64,000 nucleotides of DNA from Escherichia coli. GTDB lineage: Bacteria > Pseudomonadota > Gammaproteobacteria > Enterobacterales > Enterobacteriaceae. Every line of letters begins with the position of its first letter. Positions within the stretch are counted from its first letter, which is position 1. Location: NCBI RefSeq assembly GCF_003019035.1, contig NZ_CP027447.1. One strand, 5' to 3'. This document shows positions 14,149 to 25,792 of this stretch, piece by piece. Below the pieces are notes generated by a model, which was not told where the DNA came from, did not search any database, and saw only the letters and a program-made list of their open reading frames with translations. Position numbers and translations under genes: made by a program.

Positions 14149-14268
14149 ATGCCAATGGAGTTTGAATGGGATGCAAATAAGGCCAAAGGTAATCGGGTGA
14201 AACATGGCATCCGCTTTGAAGATGCGGTGTTAGTGTTTGATGATCCACAACGAACGGAATCGCTATGA
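14149..14268 (+). pseudogene. brnT: brnT (DUF497 toxin) remnant with internal deletion
   Basis: MPMEFEWDANKAKGNRVKHGIRFEDAVLVFDDP matches the BrnT N-terminus, stops after 39 codons; a BrnT-like C-terminus (NERNRYEHG-stop, ending 14278) is in the +1 frame. Confidence 0.55.
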
Positions 14269-14567
14269 GCATGGTTAAACATAAACGAGGGACCTCCTCT
14301 ACACTCGATGTGCAGCATGAGGCCGAACTGAAGGCGCTGGCGAATAAATCCGACGAAGATATTGATTACAGTGATATCCCACCTTCCAGCGATGAGCAAT
14401 GGTCTAACGCAGAACGCGGTAAGTTTTATCGGCCATTGAAAACTCAGGCCTCGGTGCGTATTGATTCTGATGTGATGGAATGGTTGAAGCGACCAGGTAA
14501 AGGCTATCAAACTCGCCTGAACGCAATTTTACGTGAAGCGATGCTGCGCGATCAGAACAAAAAATAA
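14265..14567 (+). CDS. brnA: BrnA-like antitoxin (ribbon-helix-helix / DUF4415 family)
   Basis: 100 aa; C-terminal ...VRIDSDVMEWLKRPGKGYQTRLNAILREAM matches BrnA signature; start overlaps the brnT remnant in typical TA fashion (alternative ATG at 14271). Confidence 0.6.
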   Translation: MSMVKHKRGTSSTLDVQHEAELKALANKSDEDIDYSDIPPSSDEQWSNAERGKFYRPLKTQASVRIDSDVMEWLKRPGKGYQTRLNAILREAMLRDQNKK

Positions 14568-15820: not shown

Positions 15821-17971
15821 TTAGTGGTGCGAAGAGATCTTCACGCCGCCTTCCGGGATTGGAACGTACGGTGTTTCTTTGTCAGTACGTTTGTCGCTGT
15901 TACGCACCTTCAGCCAGGTTTTGAAACCGTAGAAGATGATGCTGTACACCACAATCAGGAACAGAATACTCAGACCTGCGTTGGTGTAGTTGTTCACAAC
16001 GATGTGGTTCATGTTGGCAATCTGCTGCGCCGTCAGGTCAGTACCGTTAGCAATCTTCTCTTTGTACTGGCTTGCCATGTAGAAGAAGCCTTCCATCTGC
16101 GGGTTGGTGCTGAACAGTTTCAGGCCCAGCGCCCAGGTGGTGCAGATAAGCAGCCATACAGCCGGAACAACAGTTACCCAGATGTATTGGGTGCGCTTCA
16201 TCTTAATCAGCACAACGGTGCCCAGTACCAGCGCTACGGCTGCCAGCATCTGGTTGGAGATACCGAACAGCGGCCACAGGCTCTTAACGCCGCCCAGCGG
16301 ATCGACCACGCCCTGATACAGCAGGTAGCCCCACAGACCCACACAGCCCGCAGTACCGATGATACCGGCAACCAGAGAGTCGGTTTTTTTCAGGAACGGG
16401 ATGAAGTTACCCAGCAGGTCCTGCAGCATAAAGCGGCCAGAACGGGTACCCGCATCCAGCGCGGTCAGGATGAACAGGGCTTCGAACAGAATACCGAAGT
16501 GATACCAGAAGCCCATGTCAGCCATCGGCAGCACTTTGTGGAACACATGAGCGATACCTACCGCCAGCGTCGGCGCACCACCTGCACGGTTCAGGACAGA
16601 AGGCTCACCAATGTCTTTCGCGGTTTGCAGGATCTGCTCTGGCGAAATCACGAAGCCCCAGGAGCTGACGGTCGCTGCCGCGTGTGCGGTAACGTCTTTC
16701 AGCTGCGCCATGATGATCGGCGCGTTCTCGCCACCCATTTCATGCAGGTTAGGCATGGTGATGCCGAGGCCAGCAGGCGGGGTGTTCATCGCGAAGTAAA
16801 GACCCGGTTCGATGATGGACGCAGCAACCAGCGCCATAATCGCCACGAAGGACTCCATCAGCATTGCGCCGTAGCCAATGAAACGCGCGTCGGTTTCGTT
16901 AGCCAGCAGTTTCGGTGTCGTGCCGGAAGAGATCAGCGCGTGGAAGCCAGATACCGCACCACAGGCGATGGTGATGAACAGGAACGGGAACAGAGCGCCT
17001 TTCCACAGCGGGCCAGTACCGTCAATGTACTGGGTCATCGCAGGCATTTTCAGTTCCGGGTTCAGCACCACGATACCCAGCGCCAGGCCGACGATAACGC
17101 CGATTTTCAGGAAGGTTGCCAGATAGTCGCGCGGTGCGAGGATCAGCCACACTGGCAGCAGTGCGGAAACAAACGCATAGCCAATCAGTGCGAAGGTAAT
17201 GGTGGTGTCTTTAAAGGTCAGTGCCGGACCCCAGTACGGATCGTGAGCAATCACGCCACCGAAGTAGATAGAGGCAACCAGCAGCACGATACCAATGACA
17301 GAGACTTCACCTACACGCCCCGGACGAATAAAGCGCATGTAGATACCCATAAACAGCGCAATCGGTACGGTTGAGCAAACGGTGAAGACACCCCACGGAC
17401 TTTCGGCCAGGGCTTTAACCACAATCAGCGCCAGGACGGCAAGGATGATGATCATGATTAAGAAACAGCCAAACAGCGCGATAGTCCCCGGTACTGGTCC
17501 CATCTCTTCTTTGATCATCTCACCGAGAGATGCGCCGTTACGGCGAGAGGAGATAAACAGCACCATAAAGTCCTGTACCGCACCGGCCAGCACTACCCCC
17601 GCCAGCAGCCACAGCGTGCCAGGCAGGTAGCCCATCTGCGCGGCGAGAACCGGACCAACCAGCGGACCAGCACCGGCGATAGCGGCGAAGTGGTGACCAA
17701 ACAACACGTAACGGTTGGTCGGAACATAGTTCAGACCGTCGTTGTTAATAACCGCAGGCGTCGCGCGCGTGGGGTCGAGTTTCATCACCTTCTGGGCGAT
17801 GTACAGACTGTAGTAGCGATAAGCCACCAGATACACCGACACAGAGGCGACCACGATCCACAGGGCACTGACGTGCTCCCCCCGACGTAATGCAACTACC
17901 GCGAGGCAGAATGCACCGATGATTCCGAGAATCACCCAGGGTATGTGCTTGAATATCTTTTTAGTATCCAT
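15821..17971 (-). CDS. btsT: CstA-family pyruvate/H+ symporter BtsT
   Basis: 716 aa from ATG at 17971 (MDTKKIFKHIPWVILGIIG...); polytopic membrane protein. Confidence 0.9.
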   Translation of the reverse strand: MDTKKIFKHIPWVILGIIGAFCLAVVALRRGEHVSALWIVVASVSVYLVAYRYYSLYIAQKVMKLDPTRATPAVINNDGLNYVPTNRYVLFGHHFAAIAGAGPLVGPVLAAQMGYLPGTLWLLAGVVLAGAVQDFMVLFISSRRNGASLGEMIKEEMGPVPGTIALFGCFLIMIIILAVLALIVVKALAESPWGVFTVCSTVPIALFMGIYMRFIRPGRVGEVSVIGIVLLVASIYFGGVIAHDPYWGPALTFKDTTITFALIGYAFVSALLPVWLILAPRDYLATFLKIGVIVGLALGIVVLNPELKMPAMTQYIDGTGPLWKGALFPFLFITIACGAVSGFHALISSGTTPKLLANETDARFIGYGAMLMESFVAIMALVAASIIEPGLYFAMNTPPAGLGITMPNLHEMGGENAPIIMAQLKDVTAHAAATVSSWGFVISPEQILQTAKDIGEPSVLNRAGGAPTLAVGIAHVFHKVLPMADMGFWYHFGILFEALFILTALDAGTRSGRFMLQDLLGNFIPFLKKTDSLVAGIIGTAGCVGLWGYLLYQGVVDPLGGVKSLWPLFGISNQMLAAVALVLGTVVLIKMKRTQYIWVTVVPAVWLLICTTWALGLKLFSTNPQMEGFFYMASQYKEKIANGTDLTAQQIANMNHIVVNNYTNAGLSILFLIVVYSIIFYGFKTWLKVRNSDKRTDKETPYVPIPEGGVKISSHH

Positions 17972-18203
17972 AGTAAAACCTGGCATGTATTGATTAATAG
18001 TTGGCCGAAGCCGTTCTAGGTTTGCGTTGCGTTTGAGGAGGTAAATTGACCGCTATCCTGCAGTGATGTTGCCAGAGTTACGCGCGCGTAAAGTAAGGTA
18101 AATAACTGAGTGGTTATTTTAGGGATGTAAGCGGTCAGGAATGGCGGTGAGCGGTTGGGCAAGAATTATTCGTCGGGTGGATATGTGATTGAGATCACAA
18201 TAA

Positions 18204-18238
18204 AAATGCCCCTTCGATAATTAACCGAAGGGGCGTTC
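18204..18238 (-). terminator. Rho-independent terminator after the DSD1-like gene
   Basis: gccccttcg-ataattaac-cgaaggggc hairpin followed by T-run on the minus strand, directly 3' of the stop at 18239. Confidence 0.5.
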
Positions 18239-19459
18239 TTAGAAGAGAGTGTCTAATTCTGCCAGTACGTTGTAGTCGTCATCAGTCAATAACAACGTTT
18301 TCCATTTGTCGAAGGTCAGGCACGGATGCGATGTGCCAAACACCAGAATATCCCCCACTTGCACGTCGCTATTAGCTGACAGTTGCAACATGCAGTGCTG
18401 ATCCATAATACCTGTACTGCGAATCGCCTGTGGATCAAATGCCAGTGATTTGCCGTTGCGGTAGTGGGCGACTGGTTGCGGCAGTCCGGCGTCGAAGGCG
18501 CAATCACGCTTACCAAAATTTACCACCGCACGATCAGCTTCCGGCACCGATTGCACCATGGCGACCAGTTCCAGCGCAGATGTGAGATCGCCTGCCAGAT
18601 CGCAGGCCACAGGATCACGGGCAAGCAACTGTTGTTGTGCCGCGTCGTAGATCCCGGTGTCGTGAGTGATGTAGCAGCCAGGGCGAATAACAATGCGGCA
18701 GTTATCAGGCTTTTCTGCCGCCAGCCAGATATTGCACACCACGTCATACCAGACCGTGCCTGCTCCGGTGAGAATAAACTCGCCATCAACCAGACTTGCT
18801 ATATCACAGGCCAGTTGTGCGGCATCCCGCAGCAGAGCTTCTACCTGCGGTTGTGGATCGTCACCGTGTAAAACGCCTTCATATAACTCAAGCCCCCGCA
18901 GGCGTAACCCCGGTAATTGGGCTGCCTGTTTAGCCAGTGTCAGTGCGGCATCCCTTGAGCGGCAACCACAGCGCCCGCCGGGGACACCCAACTCAATCAT
19001 CACGTTCAGTGTCTGTTGCTGACTGGCAAAAAAGGCAGACAAAGCGCGGGCGTTCTCAATGCTGTCGATACAGCAGATAAAATCGACCGTCGGGTAATGT
19101 CGTTGCAACTGGGCAATCAACTGCATATTCGCCTTGCCGACCAGCTGGTTAACCATCAGCACTCGCTGAATACCGCTCGCCATTGCCGCACCAGCCTGCC
19201 ATGCGCTACCGACACCTATTGCCCAGGCACCAGCCGCCTGCTGCGCCTGAAAAATCCACGGCGTCATGGTGGTTTTACCGTGCGGTGCCAGTGAAACGCC
19301 GCGCGCGTCAGCGTAGCGTTGCATCCACGTAATGTTGTTCTCCAGGGCCTGCTTTTTAATGATCGCGGCAGGTAAACAGACATCTTCGGCAAGGAGATTT
19401 GCGGGCATTTGCATCAGGGCAGATTTATGGGGAACCAGAGGTTCTGAGTGGTATTTCAT
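18239..19459 (-). CDS. PLP-dependent alanine-racemase-fold enzyme, DSD1 family (D-serine/D-threonine dehydratase or aldolase-like)
   Basis: 406 aa; N-terminal TIM-barrel with PLP-lysine context LAPHGKTT; ATG at 19459. Confidence 0.7.
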   Translation of the reverse strand: MKYHSEPLVPHKSALMQMPANLLAEDVCLPAAIIKKQALENNITWMQRYADARGVSLAPHGKTTMTPWIFQAQQAAGAWAIGVGSAWQAGAAMASGIQRVLMVNQLVGKANMQLIAQLQRHYPTVDFICCIDSIENARALSAFFASQQQTLNVMIELGVPGGRCGCRSRDAALTLAKQAAQLPGLRLRGLELYEGVLHGDDPQPQVEALLRDAAQLACDIASLVDGEFILTGAGTVWYDVVCNIWLAAEKPDNCRIVIRPGCYITHDTGIYDAAQQQLLARDPVACDLAGDLTSALELVAMVQSVPEADRAVVNFGKRDCAFDAGLPQPVAHYRNGKSLAFDPQAIRSTGIMDQHCMLQLSANSDVQVGDILVFGTSHPCLTFDKWKTLLLTDDDYNVLAELDTLF

Positions 19460-19659
19460 AACATTTACCTTTTAAGTTTTTCACCGTATCGGATGTGAGT
19501 ATCATTTGTAACTAAATGAAATATAAATATTTAGTTTATTTATCTTATTATTTATGAATAAAAGTATCATAAAATCATCTGGGTTTTGCGTAGTTTTCCA
19601 CTGTTTTTCGTCCTTGTAAATGGTTAACTTGTCACCATTGCAGAAATGGAGTGACGAAC

Positions 19660-21102
19660 ATGCAGGTTGACTGGTTAATCAAAAATGTGACCGTTATCGA
19701 CGGTAGCGGCGGCCCTGAATTTCGCGGTGACGTGGCAATAACAGGTGATCGGATTGTCGATATTGCCCCTGCGCTTAACGTTACGGCGCAGCAGGTCATT
19801 GACGGGGAAGGGCGGGTGCTGGCACCAGGGTTTATCGACGTTCATACCCATGACGATATCAACGTTATTCGCATCCCGGAATATCTGCCAAAGATCAGCC
19901 AGGGGATCACTACGGTGATTGTCGGTAACTGCGGGATTAGTGCGGCGTCGGCGAAAATGAAAGGTGAAGTTCCTGACCCGATGAATCTGTTGGGGGAAGC
20001 AGAGCACTTTATTTATCCTACCGTTGAAAGCTATGCCCAGGCAGTGGAAGCAGCCAGGCCGTCACTGAACGTTGGCACGCTGATTGGTCATACGGCGCTG
20101 CGTAATAACCATATGGACGACCTGTTTCGCCCGGCGACGGTGGATGAAATTGCCGCTATGCGTGCCGACTTACGTCTGGCGTTGAGTCAGGGGGCGCTGG
20201 GGTTAAGTTCCGGGCTGGCCTATGCAACGGCATTTCAGGCGACTACCGAAGAAGTCATGGCGCTGGCGGAAGAATTAGCCGGTGAGAAGGGCGTTTATAC
20301 CACCCATCTGCGTTCTGAATTTGAACCGATTCTCGATGCCCTGGATGAGGCGTTTCGTATTGGGCGTCATGGCAAAGTGCCTGTCGTGGTTTCCCACCAT
20401 AAATGCGCCGGGGCGAAAAACTGGGGGCGGACAAAAGAAACGTTGGCCTTTTTTGACCAAATGCGTCAACACCAGGAAATTGGCTGCGATGTCTACCCTT
20501 ACTCGGCCAGTTCTTCAACGCTGGATCTCAAACAAGTCACCGACGAATTCGATATTGTGATCACCTGGTCACAAACACATCCGCAGCAGGCCGGGAAAAC
20601 ACTGGCACAAATCGCCATCGACTGGCAGATGAGTATGCTGGAGGCCGCGAAGTTGCTGATGCCTGCCGGGGCTATCTATTACAACATGGACGAGCGCGAC
20701 GTCCGCAGAGTGTTGAGTTATCCGGTCAGTATGATTGGCTCTGACGGACTGCCCAATGATCCCATGCCGCATCCGCGTTTATGGGGCGCTTTCCCTCGCG
20801 TGCTGGGTCACTATTGCCGTGATGAAGGCTTATTCCCACTGACCACGGCTATCCACAAAATGACCGGGCTTTCTGCCAGCCGTTTTCGTCTGCCTCAGCG
20901 TGGGCTGGTGAAAGTCGGCTATTTTGCGGACCTGGTGTTGTTCGATCCACAAACCATTCGTGATGTTGCCAGCTTTTCTGATCCCAAACGCCCGGCAGAT
21001 GGCATTGAGGCGGTGATGGTGAACGGCGTTATGAGCTATGGTCGCGATAAACACATTACAGGCCGTGCGGGACGCTTCCTGCGCCGCCAGACCTCACATT
21101 AA
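19660..21102 (+). CDS. D-aminoacylase (N-acyl-D-amino-acid deacylase), amidohydrolase superfamily
   Basis: 480 aa from ATG at 19660 (GGAG SD); MQVDWLIKNVTVIDGSGG..., metal-binding FIDVHTHDD. Confidence 0.8.
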   Translation: MQVDWLIKNVTVIDGSGGPEFRGDVAITGDRIVDIAPALNVTAQQVIDGEGRVLAPGFIDVHTHDDINVIRIPEYLPKISQGITTVIVGNCGISAASAKMKGEVPDPMNLLGEAEHFIYPTVESYAQAVEAARPSLNVGTLIGHTALRNNHMDDLFRPATVDEIAAMRADLRLALSQGALGLSSGLAYATAFQATTEEVMALAEELAGEKGVYTTHLRSEFEPILDALDEAFRIGRHGKVPVVVSHHKCAGAKNWGRTKETLAFFDQMRQHQEIGCDVYPYSASSSTLDLKQVTDEFDIVITWSQTHPQQAGKTLAQIAIDWQMSMLEAAKLLMPAGAIYYNMDERDVRRVLSYPVSMIGSDGLPNDPMPHPRLWGAFPRVLGHYCRDEGLFPLTTAIHKMTGLSASRFRLPQRGLVKVGYFADLVLFDPQTIRDVASFSDPKRPADGIEAVMVNGVMSYGRDKHITGRAGRFLRRQTSH

Positions 21103-21111
21103 GGAGTGAAT

Positions 21112-21501
21112 ATGAGTATTAAACGTTACGGTACGGAAGGTGGAACAGGCACTGGCGGGCAGCATTTGCCGTTTGCCAGGGCGGTTGAGGCGGGCGGCTG
21201 GCTGTACGTCTCCGGGCAAACCCCCATGAAAAACGGTGAAGTGGTAGAAGGCGGTATCGTTGAACAGTCACGACTGGCGATCCAAAACTGTGTCGACATC
21301 ATGACTGAAGCCGGTTATAGCCTGGCGGATGTGGTTCACGTGAAAGTGATCCTGACCGACGCCCGCTATTTCCAGTCATTTAATAAAGTATTCAGAGAAT
21401 TTTTTGGCGAGAATCCGCCTGCACGTATTTGTTGTGTAGCTGATCTGGTTGTCGATTGTAAAGTTGAAGTCGATGTGACCTGTTATAACGCGACCCGCTA
21501 A
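21112..21501 (+). CDS. RidA/YjgF-family enamine/imine deaminase
   Basis: 129 aa from ATG at 21112 with AAGGAG SD; starts 10 nt after the D-aminoacylase stop (operon). Confidence 0.8.
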   Translation: MSIKRYGTEGGTGTGGQHLPFARAVEAGGWLYVSGQTPMKNGEVVEGGIVEQSRLAIQNCVDIMTEAGYSLADVVHVKVILTDARYFQSFNKVFREFFGENPPARICCVADLVVDCKVEVDVTCYNATR

Positions 21502-21603
21502 TAAATTTAAGAATTAAAAAAATAGACCGCAATTGAGTGCTGAATACATTCAGCACTCCGGGAACTCTTACTTTATTCTCTCTCTACTGGCAGGATGTGA
21601 ATT

Positions 21604-23073
21604 ATGAACAGTCATATCTTTTTAGTCGGCTTTATTATTTATGCCATCGCCATGATTTGGCTTGGTTGGTTTGTGTCTCGTAATCAGAAAAGCGGAGAAG
21701 ATTTTCTGCTGGGCGGGCGTTCGTTGCCGCTGTTTCTGACGCTGGGCTCAACCGTTGCCACGATGGTTGGCACGGGTTCCAGTATGGGCGCCGTGGGCTT
21801 TGGCTACAGCAATGGCTGGGCCGGAATGCTTTATGGCGTCGGTGGGGCCGTAGGTATATTACTGGTGGCGTGGCTGTTTGCACCGGTACGTAAATTACGT
21901 TTTATGACCATGAGTGAAGAAATATCTTATTATACTGGCGGGAGTCATTTAATTAAAAATATTGTCGGCCTGATGATATTTATTGCCTCTATTGGCTGGC
22001 TGGGGGCGCATATATTAGGTGGCAGTATGTATCTTGCCTGGGCAACAGGTATTGATCTTACTGTAGCAAAATTAATTATCGCCTTAGCTTTTGCGATTTA
22101 CGTTATTATCGGCGGTTATTCGGCGGTAGTGTGGACAGACACCATTCAGGCCTTAATTCTGTTCTTTGGCTTTATATTGATGGCTATTCTCGCCGTTGTT
22201 CACGTTGGCGGCTGGAGTGCGATTGAACAGGCGATGGACCCAAAAGCGATGAGCCTGTTTGCGATTGATAAAATGGGCGTTCTACCTGCGCTTTCGCTGG
22301 CGCTGGTTATTGGTGTCGGCGTACTGGCCACACCGTCTTATCGCCAGCGTATTTACTCGGGTAAAGATGTTCCCTCTGTACGCCGTTCGTTTGTTATTAC
22401 TGGGGTGTTATATCTGTTCTTCTCGATTTTGCCTGCCATTATCGGCATGGCGGCGTTCACCATGAACCCAAATCTGGAAAACAGCAACTACGCCTTCTTG
22501 TTCGCGACCAGTTTCTTACCTGCCATTCTTGGGCTGGTGGTGCTGATTGCCGGGCTTTCAGCCACCATGTCTTCTGCCAGCTCCGATGCCATCGCGGCGG
22601 TGGCGATTATGATGCGCGACGTCTACACCATGATTACCGGCAGAATGCCGCCGGAGGACAAGGCCATTACTTACTCACGCTGGATGTTGACCTTTGTTAT
22701 TGGCCTGGCGCTGGTCTTTGCTCTGACCTCTAATGACATCATCAGCTACATTACCAAAATGATTTCGATGCTGATGTCCGGGCTGTTTATCTGCTCGATT
22801 CTCGGTCGCTTCTGGCTACGCTTTAACTGGCAGGGCGCGCTGGCGGCGTTAGTGAGCGGTATGGTGATGTCAATTGTGGTGCTGATGAATGCCGACTGGC
22901 TGGCTTACTGGGGTAACCCGTGTATTCCGTCAGTGCTGGGCAGCCTGGTCGCTGGCGTACTGGTGACGTTGGTAACGCCAGCAAGTCAGGTCAGCCGGGA
23001 AGAAGCTTTGGCTATTATCACCAATGAGCGTGAAAACCAGAGTGTCGTGATCACCAAACCTGAAGAAGCATAA
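21604..23073 (+). CDS. Sodium:solute symporter family (SSF) transporter
   Basis: 489 aa polytopic membrane protein; GGRSLP and SSF-like N-terminal helices. Confidence 0.8.
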   Translation: MNSHIFLVGFIIYAIAMIWLGWFVSRNQKSGEDFLLGGRSLPLFLTLGSTVATMVGTGSSMGAVGFGYSNGWAGMLYGVGGAVGILLVAWLFAPVRKLRFMTMSEEISYYTGGSHLIKNIVGLMIFIASIGWLGAHILGGSMYLAWATGIDLTVAKLIIALAFAIYVIIGGYSAVVWTDTIQALILFFGFILMAILAVVHVGGWSAIEQAMDPKAMSLFAIDKMGVLPALSLALVIGVGVLATPSYRQRIYSGKDVPSVRRSFVITGVLYLFFSILPAIIGMAAFTMNPNLENSNYAFLFATSFLPAILGLVVLIAGLSATMSSASSDAIAAVAIMMRDVYTMITGRMPPEDKAITYSRWMLTFVIGLALVFALTSNDIISYITKMISMLMSGLFICSILGRFWLRFNWQGALAALVSGMVMSIVVLMNADWLAYWGNPCIPSVLGSLVAGVLVTLVTPASQVSREEALAIITNERENQSVVITKPEEA

Positions 23074-23082
23074 CCGACAATG

Positions 23083-23988
23083 CTAATCGCCAAGTGGCTG
23101 GCGGTTAGCGCCCCCACGGTGGCTGTCTAACACGAGTTTTATCCGCCGCAGGCGATCTTTCGCCTGCGCTTTATTTGCCATTGCCAGTTCTGTTGCCAGT
23201 ACATCGACCATGGCTAACATCGCGTAGCGGGAAGGGGTGGGCTTAAAGATGTAATCACTTTCCTGAACCAGTAACGGCAATACCAGATCCACCTGTTCCG
23301 CCAGCGGTGTTTGTGCTGGCGTAATGGCAATAACACGCGCGCCATACTGACGGGCGATTGCCGCACTTTCGATGATTTCCGGTGTATAACCGCCCAGCGA
23401 AAGCACAATCACCACATCCTGCGGCATGACTGCCGAGCACATCATTCTCATCATCAGGGCATCATTCTGACTGACCACCGGTAGCCCCAGACGGAATAAA
23501 CGGTACTGAATCTCCTGTGAACAGATAGTGGAACCGCCGCCAGTTCCTAACGCAAGAATTTGCCGCGCCTGACTTAACCAGCTTACAGCCTGGCTGATGG
23601 CATTCATATCCAGCGAACGACGATGCGTCTCCAGCACGCTAATAATCGCTTCGTAGATCCCCTGAACACCGTCAAGATCCGGTACATCGAGAATAAACCG
23701 CTGCCCGACAGCCAGTGACTGCGCCAGTTTGACTTTCAACTCGCGGACATCTTTGCACCCCAGTGCACGGGCAAAACGCGTCACCGACGCCTGACTGGTT
23801 TGCGTTAACCGTGCCAGCTCAGCAATTGGCAACTCTACTGCGGCAGAGACGTCATCAAGAATAAATTGTGCGATACGCTTTTCAGTGGCTGTTAACGCCA
23901 TAAACCGTTCGGTAATGCAGGAGATGATATCGATGCTATAAGCCATAGGAGTATCACTGGTTCGAAGAAGATTGATACTTTGTACCAT
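23083..23988 (-). CDS. RpiR/MurR-family transcriptional regulator (HTH_6 + SIS domain)
   Basis: 301 aa; N-terminal HTH (LTATEKRIAQFILDD...IAELARLTQTSQASVTRFARALG) and SIS sugar-phosphate-binding domain; true start may be 23946 or 23901. Confidence 0.8.
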   Translation of the reverse strand: MVQSINLLRTSDTPMAYSIDIISCITERFMALTATEKRIAQFILDDVSAAVELPIAELARLTQTSQASVTRFARALGCKDVRELKVKLAQSLAVGQRFILDVPDLDGVQGIYEAIISVLETHRRSLDMNAISQAVSWLSQARQILALGTGGGSTICSQEIQYRLFRLGLPVVSQNDALMMRMMCSAVMPQDVVIVLSLGGYTPEIIESAAIARQYGARVIAITPAQTPLAEQVDLVLPLLVQESDYIFKPTPSRYAMLAMVDVLATELAMANKAQAKDRLRRIKLVLDSHRGGANRQPLGD

Positions 23989-24069
23989 AAACTGCCGCTA
24001 TAGAGTGTGACCCTCACAAAAAACGCAAGTTTGCTGCAACAAAAGCAGTGCCGACGCTTTTCCACAGCA

Positions 24070-24096
24070 TAAAGTTTTCCACCACCAGGCCGACAA
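24070..24096 (+). promoter_or_regulatory. Sigma-28 (FliA) class III flagellar/chemotaxis promoter for tsr
   Basis: TAAAGTTT-N11-GCCGACAA matches the sigma-28 consensus TAAAGTTT-N11-GCCGATAA, about 30 nt upstream of the tsr ATG. Confidence 0.6.
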
Positions 24097-24127
24097 CCAG
24101 TGTATCTGTCTAGTGGAAAGAGAAACC

Positions 24128-25792
24128 ATGTTAAAACGTATCAAGATCGTGACCAGCTTACTGCTGGTTTTGGCCGTTTTTGGCCTTTTACAACTGACAT
24201 CAGGCGGTCTGTTCTTTAATGCCTTAAAGAATGACAAAGAAAATTTCACTGTTTTACAAACCATTCGCCAGCAGCAATCCACGCTGAATGGCAGCTGGGT
24301 CGCGTTGTTGCAGACGCGTAACACCCTCAACCGCGCGGGTATCCGCTACATGATGGATCAGAATAATATTGGTAGCGGTTCAACCGTTGCTGAGCTGATG
24401 CAGAGTGCCAGTATTTCGCTGAAACAGGCGGAAAAAAACTGGGCGGATTACGAAGTGTTGCCGCGTGACCCGCGTCAGAGCACCGCCGCAGCGGCAGAGA
24501 TCAAACGTAATTACGATATTTATCACAATGCGCTGGCGGAGCTGATCCAACTGTTAGGTGCAGGCAAAATCAACGAGTTCTTTGATCAGCCGACCCAGGG
24601 ATATCAGGACGGTTTCGAGAAGCAGTATGTGGCTTACATGGAGCAAAACGATCGGCTCTATGATATCGCCGTCAGCGATAATAATGCCTCCTACAGCCAG
24701 GCGATGTGGATTCTGGTGGGCGTGATGATCGTCGTACTGGCGGTCATCTTCGCCGTCTGGTTCGGTATTAAAGCCTCGTTGGTAGCGCCAATGAATCGCC
24801 TGATTGACAGCATTCGTCATATTGCAGGCGGCGATCTGGTGAAACCGATTGAGGTGGATGGCTCTAATGAGATGGGGCAACTGGCTGAGAGTTTGCGCCA
24901 TATGCAGGGAGAGCTGATGCGTACCGTCGGTGATGTGCGCAACGGGGCCAATGCCATCTATAGCGGTGCCAGCGAAATCGCTACCGGCAATAACGATCTC
25001 TCTTCGCGCACCGAGCAACAGGCCGCTTCGCTGGAAGAGACGGCAGCCAGCATGGAGCAACTGACCGCAACGGTGAAGCAGAACGCCGAAAATGCGCGCC
25101 AGGCCAGCCACCTGGCGTTAAGTGCTTCTGAAACGGCGCAACGCGGCGGCAAAGTGGTAGATAACGTGGTGCAGACTATGCGCGATATCTCCACCAGTTC
25201 GCAGAAAATCGCCGATATTATCAGCGTAATTGACGGCATTGCCTTCCAGACCAATATTCTCGCTTTGAACGCGGCGGTTGAAGCAGCGCGCGCGGGTGAG
25301 CAAGGGCGCGGTTTTGCGGTGGTCGCGGGTGAAGTGCGTAATCTGGCCCAGCGCAGCGCTCAGGCGGCTCGTGAAATTAAAAGCCTGATTGAAGACTCGG
25401 TGGGCAAAGTGGATGTTGGCTCTACGCTGGTCGAAAGCGCCGGGGAAACCATGGCAGAGATTGTCAGCGCTGTGACCCGCGTGACGGACATTATGGGCGA
25501 AATTGCTTCGGCTTCTGATGAGCAGAGCCGTGGTATCGATCAGGTTGGCTTAGCAGTAGCTGAGATGGACAGAGTAACCCAACAGAACGCTGCGCTGGTG
25601 GAAGAATCTGCCGCCGCTGCCGCCGCGCTGGAAGAGCAGGCCAGTCGCCTGACCGAAGCTGTGGCAGTGTTCCGGATTCAGCAACAGCAGCAACATCAGC
25701 GTGAAACATCGGCTGTGGTAAAAACCGTGACGCCAGCTGCGCCGCGTAAAATGGCCGTGGCAGATAGCGGGGAGAACTGGGAAACGTTTTAA
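24128..25792 (+). CDS. tsr: Methyl-accepting chemotaxis protein I (serine chemoreceptor)
   Basis: 554 aa from ATG at 24128 ([19 protein letters not shown]...); HAMP and conserved MCP signalling domain. Confidence 0.9.

Follow-up and report, generated by a model that had tools for sequence, protein, structure and literature searches.

A five-gene block between btsT and tsr of Escherichia coli as the probable enterobacterial core of an ong-type pathway for N-acetyl-2-amino-2-deoxy-hexonic acids

The closest described counterpart of the locus analysed here, five genes lying between btsT and tsr in a 64,000-nucleotide stretch of Escherichia coli DNA (the window; contig NZ_CP027447.1 of assembly GCF_003019035.1), is the ong cluster for oxidative chitin utilisation, whose substrate GlcNAc1A, N-acetylglucosamine oxidised at C1, is set free from chitin (Jiang et al. 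2022, PMC9537276; Wang et al. 2025, PMC12017989). The cluster of Pseudoalteromonas prydzensis ACAM 620 encodes a TonB-dependent receptor, OngIT, OngR, the beta-hexosaminidase OngA, KdgK, the RidA protein OngD, OngB and OngC, and growth on GlcNAc1A was abolished in the ongB, ongC, ongD, ongIT and kdgK knockouts (PMC9537276). OngB produces glucosaminate and acetate, OngC then yields 2-keto-3-deoxygluconate (KDG) and NH3, and the repressor is OngR; D-Ser and D-Thr are further substrates that OngC deaminates, and the authors liken the GlcNAc1A route to D-amino-acid catabolism (PMC9537276). The same study catalogued an ong cluster in Vibrio rumoiensis 1S-45, and its Supplementary Data 3 contains 13 'Escherichia coli strain' rows that are ong-positive, with ongC, ongR, ongB, ongD and ongIT present and with lpmo (lytic polysaccharide monooxygenase, LPMO), ongOT-1, kdgK and ongA marked '-'; its main text is silent on E. 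coli (PMC9537276). This type of module is already described and catalogued bioinformatically, its members in Enterobacterales being uncharacterised. What is new here is a non-mobile history, the lack of a kinase and an aldolase in the E. coli block, the linkage to Dgo enzymes in its relatives and a conserved palindrome.

Among single enzymes, the nearest characterised one is KleDacyl of Klebsiella pneumoniae (9G5M, 9GV8), which its authors presented as a general D-acylase to be used in making D-amino acids, without mention of OngB (PMC12149444). Its gene lies inside a K. pneumoniae ong-like operon, together with those of RidA, an SSF symporter, DgoK and an aldolase of the 2-keto-3-deoxy-6-phosphogalactonate (KDPGal) type (loci L085/L086, 8001-12984). 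The position of this operon is equivalent to that of the E. coli block, with the hpa or hydroxyproline genes on one side and lgoT and lgoR on the other, but the Klebsiella operon has DgoK and the DgoA-type aldolase in addition, and KleDacyl was characterised on N-acetyl-D-amino acids only, on which it is weak. Two other structures, the Alcaligenes D-aminoacylase AfDam (1M7J) and the Bordetella N-acyl-D-glutamate deacylase BbDam (3GIP), belong to enzymes inactive on GlcNAc1A; the pocket of the former is hydrophobic and that of the latter contains an Arg, whereas the E. coli pocket is small and polar.

The D-glucosaminate pathway dga of Salmonella combines uptake by the phosphotransferase system (PTS) with DgaE, a D-glucosaminate-6-phosphate ammonia-lyase, and the aldolase DgaF. 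It resembles the ong-like route in that an amino-aldonic acid is converted to a 2-keto-3-deoxy sugar acid by an elimination dependent on pyridoxal phosphate (PLP). However, its substrate is phosphorylated and non-acetylated, its transporter is a PTS, its enzymes are from unrelated families, and its regulation involves sigma-54 and DgaR.

The E. coli block shares with the ong clusters of Pseudoalteromonas and Vibrio the five core functions OngC, OngB, OngD, OngIT and OngR, as well as the catalytic and contact residues of OngB. We compared it with them gene by gene, and it most probably constitutes, with a probability that we put at about 0.75, the form that the core of an ong-type pathway takes in Enterobacterales, the substrate being an N-acetyl-2-amino-2-deoxy-hexonic acid (a C1-oxidised N-acetylhexosamine). 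The following intact open reading frames (ORFs) fill the btsT-tsr interval of the window:

18239-19459, minus strand: ongC-like gene, 406 aa, RefSeq 'amino acid deaminase' (stop codon at 18239-18241)
19660-21102, plus strand: ongB-like gene, 480 aa, subtype-V (Cys/His/His) zinc amidohydrolase, RefSeq deacylase
21112-21501, plus strand: ongD-like gene of the RidA family, 129 aa, starting 9 nt past the ongB-like stop
21604-23073, plus strand: ongIT-like sodium:solute symporter gene, 489 aa
23083-23946, minus strand: ongR-like gene of a MurR/RpiR regulator (HTH_6 + SIS), 287 aa, convergent with the symporter gene, their stops 9 nt apart

When compared with known structures, the deacylase matches KleDacyl (9G5M) with 938 bits, the P. 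prydzensis OngB (PpOngB, 9KB1) with 560, 1M7J with 458 and 3GIP with 390. It is 84% identical to KleDacyl over the full length and 54% identical to PpOngB, and the three-way alignment is gap-free, the E. coli numbering being that of PpOngB minus 6. In PpOngB the metal ligands are C97, H222 and H252 and the catalytic residue is D368; GlcNAc1A is contacted by Y194, K254, Y285, R379, S290, S291, S292, Q298, E226, L116 and L370, A193, A256 and G348 are the small or polar cavity residues, and S292, Q298 and these three cavity residues discriminate OngB from D-aminoacylases (PMC12017989). The E. coli protein conserves C91, H216 and H246 as metal ligands and D362 as the catalytic residue. Indeed, 17 of the 18 active-site positions checked (metal ligands, Asp, 11 contacts and three cavity residues) are invariant over 32 OngB-clade sequences, that of E. 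coli included. The sole variable position is Gly348 of PpOngB, which is replaced in E. coli by Asn342, still polar. The hydrophobic D-aminoacylase pocket (F191, M254, a conserved Thr, L298 and M346 in AfDam) is absent from the E. coli deacylase: alignment with 1M7J pairs A187 with F, A250 with M, S286 with T and N342 with M. At AfDam Leu298 OngB has a Gln (PMC12017989), our own sequence alignment being ambiguous in that loop. On these residues, the protein is predicted to be an N-acetyl-hexosaminate deacetylase.

The NCBIfam matches of the block proteins remain at the superfamily or subfamily level, under the curated cutoffs, hence their generic RefSeq names. The PLP enzyme contains the Pfam domains Ala_racemase_N and D-ser_dehydrat, that is, the DSD1-type, metal-dependent fold-type III architecture, with the PLP lysine Lys62 in PHGKT and His378/Cys380 in SHPC, an HxC motif common to its best PDB match 3gwq (360 bits). 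From the literature on the chicken and yeast DSD enzymes, we take HxC to be the zinc site of dehydratases, not of aldolases. Since this C-terminal motif is present and since OngC is a deaminating enzyme, dehydration is preferred over aldol cleavage. A reading as D-threonine or hydroxyaspartate aldolase was set aside: the BhcC model of NCBIfam scores 104 bits against a cutoff of 690, and the aldolase matches in the PDB are weak and mostly N-terminal. The enzyme is 73-82% identical to its enterobacterial counterparts and is predicted to convert 2-amino-2-deoxy-hexonate into 2-keto-3-deoxy-hexonate and NH3. The RidA protein (TIGR00004, 82 bits for a cutoff of 106) shares 84-86% identity with RidA from the ong clusters of Vibrio. 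It keeps the equivalent of Arg105 of E. coli RidA, in PPAR, and is a predicted enamine/imine deaminase finishing the OngC reaction. The symporter reaches TIGR00813 at superfamily level only (168 bits versus a cutoff of 184); with 68-69% identity to the Vibrio ong symporters and 73-85% within Enterobacterales, it is a predicted N-acetyl-hexosaminate importer. The regulator has its best NCBIfam match, under the cutoff, in the HexR subfamily (199 bits) and is 51-55% identical to the regulator of the Vibrio ong clusters; the Klebsiella gene at this position also encodes HTH_6 and SIS domains, and the E. coli protein is predicted to be a repressor.

Against the catalogued cluster of V. rumoiensis 1S-45, identities are 46% for OngC, 62% for OngB, 84% for OngD, 68% for OngIT and 51% for OngR, and OngB is 61-62% identical to both Vibrio loci found. 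The loci of relatives come from a scan of genome contigs whose counts are lower bounds and among whose listed matches there was no Pseudoalteromonas, Klebsiella or Escherichia; the Klebsiella loci were retrieved by exact-protein look-up. Among the matches listed, 9 of the 13 enterobacterial loci have the five genes in the same order and three more lack the symporter only. All five genes are also present in two Vibrio loci, and Franconibacter pulveris and Shimwellia have the same five-gene form as E. coli. The best 120 matches of a search in 5.8 billion proteins are all from Enterobacterales. Compared with ong, the gene order and the orientation of the regulator gene differ in E. coli from the ongCRBD operon. 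In at least 43 loci, mostly of Pseudomonas (L016-L083), an RpiR gene and an ongB homologue form a pair alone, with no homologue of OngC, RidA or the symporter within 10 kb; the aligned Pseudomonas OngB sequences have Gly at the equivalent of position 342. In Vibrio europaeus (locus L078, 15348-18903), kdgK and kdgA are followed downstream by an ORF of 819 aa with no NCBIfam hit, possibly an OngA-type hexosaminidase, and then by a 6-phosphogluconolactonase-like protein of 343 aa with a possible role in opening the GlcNAc lactone that LPMOs produce.

We infer each biochemical step in E. coli from the observed homology, residue conservation, synteny, selection and distribution, and the pathway would run as follows. 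The sodium:solute symporter would import free N-acetyl-hexosaminate, the OngB-like zinc amidohydrolase would take off the acetyl group, the OngC-like PLP enzyme would eliminate the C3 hydroxyl and the amino group, and RidA would hydrolyse the resulting enamine/imine to 2-keto-3-deoxy-hexonate and ammonia. The RpiR-type protein would keep the divergent promoters, and probably that of its own gene, repressed as long as neither the substrate nor an intermediate is present. Since the block encodes neither a kinase nor an aldolase, core enzymes would have to finish the keto-deoxy acid, KdgK and Eda if it is KDG, or DgoK and DgoA if it is 2-keto-3-deoxy-D-galactonate (KDGal). An earlier note on this DNA, made from the sequence alone, had proposed import, deacylation, PLP-dependent dehydration or aldol cleavage, and quenching by RidA; this scheme agrees with the logic of ong, except for the aldol cleavage, which is unlikely as OngC makes KDG and NH3. 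Its suggestion of a sugar-acid-like effector for the RpiR/SIS regulator fits the same logic. The module comprises the five functions but is incomplete by itself, as core KdgK/Eda or DgoK/DgoA are needed. The note's proposal of some N-acyl-D-amino acid, made while calling the substrate unknown, gives way to the class of N-acetyl-2-amino-2-deoxy-aldonic acids indicated by homology, the pocket being polar where that of AfDam is hydrophobic.

Several points weigh against an ong-type assignment, or against GlcNAc1A as the substrate. The OngC-like protein is only 44-46% identical to the Vibrio protein, the comparison for OngC, OngD, OngIT and OngR being with the Vibrio loci. The E. coli block is without kdgK, ongA, the TonB-dependent receptor and, according to the Jiang table, LPMO; in our own search, which was limited to the btsT-tsr interval and left the rest of the genome aside, no OngA, TonB-dependent receptor OngOT or AA10 LPMO was found. 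Without LPMO, ongA and the receptor, E. coli could scavenge the free monomer only. A literature search found no experimental data on GlcNAc1A use in any enterobacterium. Furthermore, KleDacyl does cleave some N-acetyl-D-amino acids and PpOngB cleaves none (PMC12149444, PMC12017989). Finally, in K. pneumoniae and in 8 of the 13 enterobacterial loci among the matches listed, the symporter and regulator genes are separated by genes for DgoK and a DgoA-type aldolase; this use of DgoK/DgoA instead of KdgK/Eda argues against KDG, and hence against GlcNAc1A, in this clade. Since GlcNAc1A is the only substrate shown for any homologue, we nevertheless keep this gluco form as the single most likely one, a tentative choice that stays short of even odds, with N-acetyl-D-galactosaminate (the C1-oxidised N-acetylgalactosamine, GalNAc1A) nearly as likely.

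The extra kinase is a 2-keto-3-deoxy-galactonokinase of the DgoK family (PF05035, E = 4e-90), in Klebsiella 51% identical to E. coli DgoK, and the extra aldolase scores 302 bits with the KDPGal-aldolase model of NCBIfam (cutoff 207), fails the eda model and is 69% identical to E. coli DgoA. Both genes abut or overlap their neighbours, which suggests translational coupling. In Vibrio, Andreprevotia and one Pseudomonas cluster, on the other hand, the kinase is a PfkB-family KdgK, accompanied in the two Vibrio loci by an Eda-type aldolase. E. coli nests inside the Dgo-linked enterobacterial clade in all four gene trees, so its block has most likely lost the kinase/aldolase pair. The configuration at C4 survives the PLP elimination, and there is no epimerase; DgoK and DgoA in the operon therefore point to KDGal and hence to N-acetyl-D-galactosaminate. 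The enterobacterial clade, E. coli included, might thus be specialised for the conversion of GalNAc1A to KDGal and for its exit through DgoK/DgoA; only the C4 stereochemistry and the exit route would differ from the gluco form, and E. coli would use its core dgo operon. This is a real possibility, held at odds clearly below even. It would also accommodate the identities to Vibrio, which are lowest for OngC among the five proteins, and the residue at OngB position 342: Asn in 14 of 14 Dgo-linked clusters, Gly or Cys in each of the five linked to KdgK. A glycerol bound in the KleDacyl crystal is contacted by Asn342 and also by Glu220, which corresponds to the ligand of the C4 hydroxyl. However, every GlcNAc1A-binding residue is unchanged, this Glu included, E. 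coli has no cluster-borne dgoK or dgoA, and no seven-gene form with the pair was found at the locus in any E. coli genome, distant BLAST matching the core dgoA only. Paraburkholderia, initially taken as independent support for the link between Asn342 and Dgo, was downgraded, its dgo genes being in a separate, adjacent operon under an IclR regulator with a short-chain dehydrogenase/reductase and an ABC transporter for sugars; in Burkholderia sp. Leaf177, position 342 is Asn and the nearest 10 kb are free of dgo genes. Hence the correlation comes down to few independent lineages, of which about one is solid, and it is confounded by phylogeny. No literature on the catabolism of GalNAc1A or galactosaminate was found, and we know of no natural source of GalNAc1A. 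Galactonate is the inducer of the core dgo operon and KDGal is not known to be one, which also counts against the galacto form. That Enterobacterales including E. coli carry a C4-epimer version of ong, leading from GalNAc1A through D-galactosaminate and KDGal to DgoK/DgoA with Asn342 helping specificity, is accordingly worded here as a doubtful proposal.

Returning to the ong-type assignment as a whole, two explanations outside it have been considered. In a generic salvage of N-acyl-D-amino acids, which corresponds to the reading of the earlier note, the deacylase would release amino acids such as D-Ser, D-Thr or D-Met from their N-acetylated forms; D-Ser or D-Thr would next be turned into the 2-oxo acid through deamination by the DSD1-type enzyme together with RidA. 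KleDacyl is strictly D-specific and cleaves N-acetyl-D-Met, -Phe, -Trp and -aminobutyrate (PMC12149444), and the activity of P. prydzensis OngC on D-Ser and D-Thr also fits such a salvage. Yet Km values of KleDacyl are 19-32 mM and its kcat/Km is 1.5-2.8 per min per mM, the best substrate being N-acetyl-D-Met (Km 32 mM, 2.8 per min per mM, or ~47 per M per s) (PMC12149444), whereas PpOngB reaches 1.6 per mM per s on GlcNAc1A (PMC12017989), a difference of ~30-fold. We read this weak activity of KleDacyl as a side reaction, its natural substrate being probably a sugar acid absent from the published assays. With N-acetyl-D-amino acids as substrates, activity of PpOngB and of two homologues was undetectable (PMC12017989). 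The side-chain pocket is polar (A187, A250, S286, Q292 and N342, with F, M, T and M at four of these positions in AfDam), and the RpiR/SIS regulator and the in-operon kinase and aldolase of relatives suit a sugar acid, which makes amino-acid salvage improbable. The other explanation is that the E. coli block, retained in only 3.6% of the genomes and devoid of the dgoK/dgoA pair of its closest relatives, is a decaying remnant left without a role by the loss of this pair. This appears very improbable, given intact ORFs in six alleles, ratios of nonsynonymous to synonymous polymorphism (pN/pS) of 0.02-0.09, retained regulatory footprints and operator, and the five-gene form also found in F. pulveris and Shimwellia.

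The Klebsiella gene after ongIT (L085, 11526-12984) is given as 'kdgK' in one of the tables of Jiang et al. and as '-' in the other (Supplementary Data 3/4, PMC9537276). This gene is of the DgoK family PF05035 and is followed by the DgoA-type aldolase gene, named KDG-6-P aldolase in their text. The difference between the DgoK and KdgK families appears to have been missed by earlier work.

A specific pathway assignment could supplant the RefSeq names deacylase and amino acid deaminase in ~4% of E. coli, very widely in K. pneumoniae and in many other Enterobacterales. It suggests that some commensal, enterotoxigenic and avian E. coli may scavenge oxidised amino sugars made by others. If the galacto form is true, gut and plant-associated enterobacteria would meet C1-oxidised N-acetylgalactosamine, for instance from oxidised mucin glycans or microbial hexosamine oxidases, and the published 'D-acylase' structure 9G5M would be that of a sugar-acid deacetylase. 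The linkage to DgoK and DgoA could lead to an undescribed catabolic route.

The block is present in 193 of 5,426 complete E. coli genomes (3.6%; megablast, at least 80% of the region covered), always on the chromosome and at 97.9-100% identity, and in 159 of these 193 the direct junction with btsT is as in the window. In the K-12-like strain BM28 the block is absent and the btsT-tsr spacer is just 377 bp long; btsT and tsr are likewise adjacent in Nissle 1917 and most other E. coli genomes. Across E. coli, the spacer is either empty (377 bp), or filled by the hpa 4-hydroxyphenylacetate cluster, or by a 10-kb hydroxyproline-catabolism cluster together with the ong-like block. O157 strains have another variant, containing a 'hypothetical protein'. 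The cluster is bordered by hpaR and tsr-lgoT in Leclercia, and by hpa or hydroxyproline-catabolism genes and lgoT-lgoR in K. pneumoniae; Klebsiella and Leclercia thus hold these catabolic modules side by side.

Purifying selection on the block is strong. The six E. coli alleles compared have every one of the five ORFs intact, free of internal stop codons, at a synonymous divergence (pS) of up to 0.095, and pN/pS is 0.08 for the ongC-like gene, 0.03 for the ongB-like gene, 0.09 for ridA, 0.02 for the symporter gene and 0.05 for the rpiR gene. For identical strain pairs, the synonymous divergence of the block equals that of the flanking core genes btsT and tsr; between the window and Z142-3, for instance, pS is 0.073 for btsT, 0.080 for ongC, 0.073 for ongB, 0.066 for ridA, 0.084 for the symporter gene, 0.094 for rpiR and 0.093 for tsr. 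Divergence is also mosaic, since in some strain pairs one gene has zero synonymous differences and its neighbour 0.05-0.08, which indicates homologous recombination within the locus between block-bearing lineages. Between the window and 2009C-3133, there are 0 synonymous differences in the ongC-like and rpiR-like genes and 18-28 in the ongB-like and symporter genes.

As hallmarks of mobility at the block, tRNA genes, integrases and transposases were sought and none was found, nor was any repeat of 8 nt or more common to both edges. The GC content of the block is 0.515, with 0.523 and 0.508 in the flanks. On these data, on the flank-like synonymous divergence and on the neighbourhood shared with Klebsiella and Leclercia, a mobile or foreign island is rejected. 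In the simplest reading, the locus is old and was inherited, as part of an ancestral enterobacterial row of catabolic modules that would have been differentially lost across E. coli lineages; the multi-state btsT-tsr spacer fits differential loss over insertion. An ancient gain followed by spread through recombination in the flanks would be the alternative history. Of the claims in the earlier note, the adjacency of btsT and tsr in K-12, now checked by genome comparison, is borne out by BM28, and a block of five genes, all intact, does separate btsT and tsr, in agreement with the RefSeq annotation of E. coli SCU-301, which is 100% identical to the window over 17000-25000. The term 'inserted' describes correctly a difference from K-12 and is probably wrong as history, and the label 'accessory island' is contradicted by the data just given. 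The note placed the block at 17987-24127; alignment with the empty site narrows the variable segment to ~18205-24067 (~5.9 kb). The terminator that it assigned to the PLP enzyme gene was recovered at the left edge of this segment, and the flanks are as follows:

15821-17971, minus strand: btsT, left flank
18208-18234, minus strand: intrinsic terminator 3' of the ongC-like gene, left edge of the variable segment, with an 11-bp stem (7 G-C pairs), a 5-nt loop, then ATTTTTATTG
24128-25792, plus strand: tsr, right flank

Homology with the empty site is lost at ~18155, returns over a CRP-like site at 18185-18200 and is complete from 24068; both this btsT-proximal site and the tsr promoter region (from 24068) are common to filled and empty sites. 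The former, TGTGATTGAGATCACA, lies upstream of btsT and resembles a CRP site. The latter contains, upstream of tsr, the sequence TAAAGTTT-N11-GCCGACAA (24070-24096), which resembles a FliA-type promoter. Both are kept at the borders of the variable segment, just as they occur in the empty site.

Although AT-rich and diverged overall, the 200-bp divergent spacer contains blocks that are invariant or nearly so in an alignment of 14 Enterobacterales. These and the palindrome upstream of the regulator gene are:

19460-19659: region between the ongC-like and ongB-like genes, putative divergent promoter/operator region, with the conserved blocks
19498-19505: conserved block AGTATCAT, a direct repeat 65 nt apart
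19555-19569: conserved block TGAATAAAAGTATCA
19584-19608: conserved block TTTTGCGTAGTTTTCCACTGTTTTT
19613-19630: conserved block CTTGTAAATGGTTAACTT
23973-23987, minus strand: candidate operator for autoregulation, TGGTAC-AAA-GTATCA, at 26 nt upstream of the regulator ATG

Upstream of the RpiR gene, the motif TGGTAC-AAA-GTA(C/T)C keeps its position in 14 of 14 Enterobacterales, and six of the 14 species, among them Leclercia and K. pneumoniae, have the full palindrome ending in GTACCA. Its general form is TGGTACAAAGTA(C/T)CA and the E. coli form, at 23973-23987, is TGGTACAAAGTATCA; the right half, AAAGTATCA, recurs in the divergent spacer at 19561-19569. The palindrome is likely an operator of the RpiR-type repressor, with autoregulation; together with the conserved footprints, it speaks for a self-contained regulon. 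A scan for sigma-70 promoters was uninformative, with 7 sites against 6.9 expected. The palindrome pattern GGTACNNNGTAYC is also seen just downstream of the OngB gene in two Pseudomonas loci (L018, 11653-11665; L021, 11817-11829), which may be chance.

Elsewhere in the window, at 14149-14567, the RefSeq annotation of the identical genome has, just upstream of yjiA, a BrnT toxin pseudogene that is truncated and, after it, an intact gene for the BrnA antitoxin.

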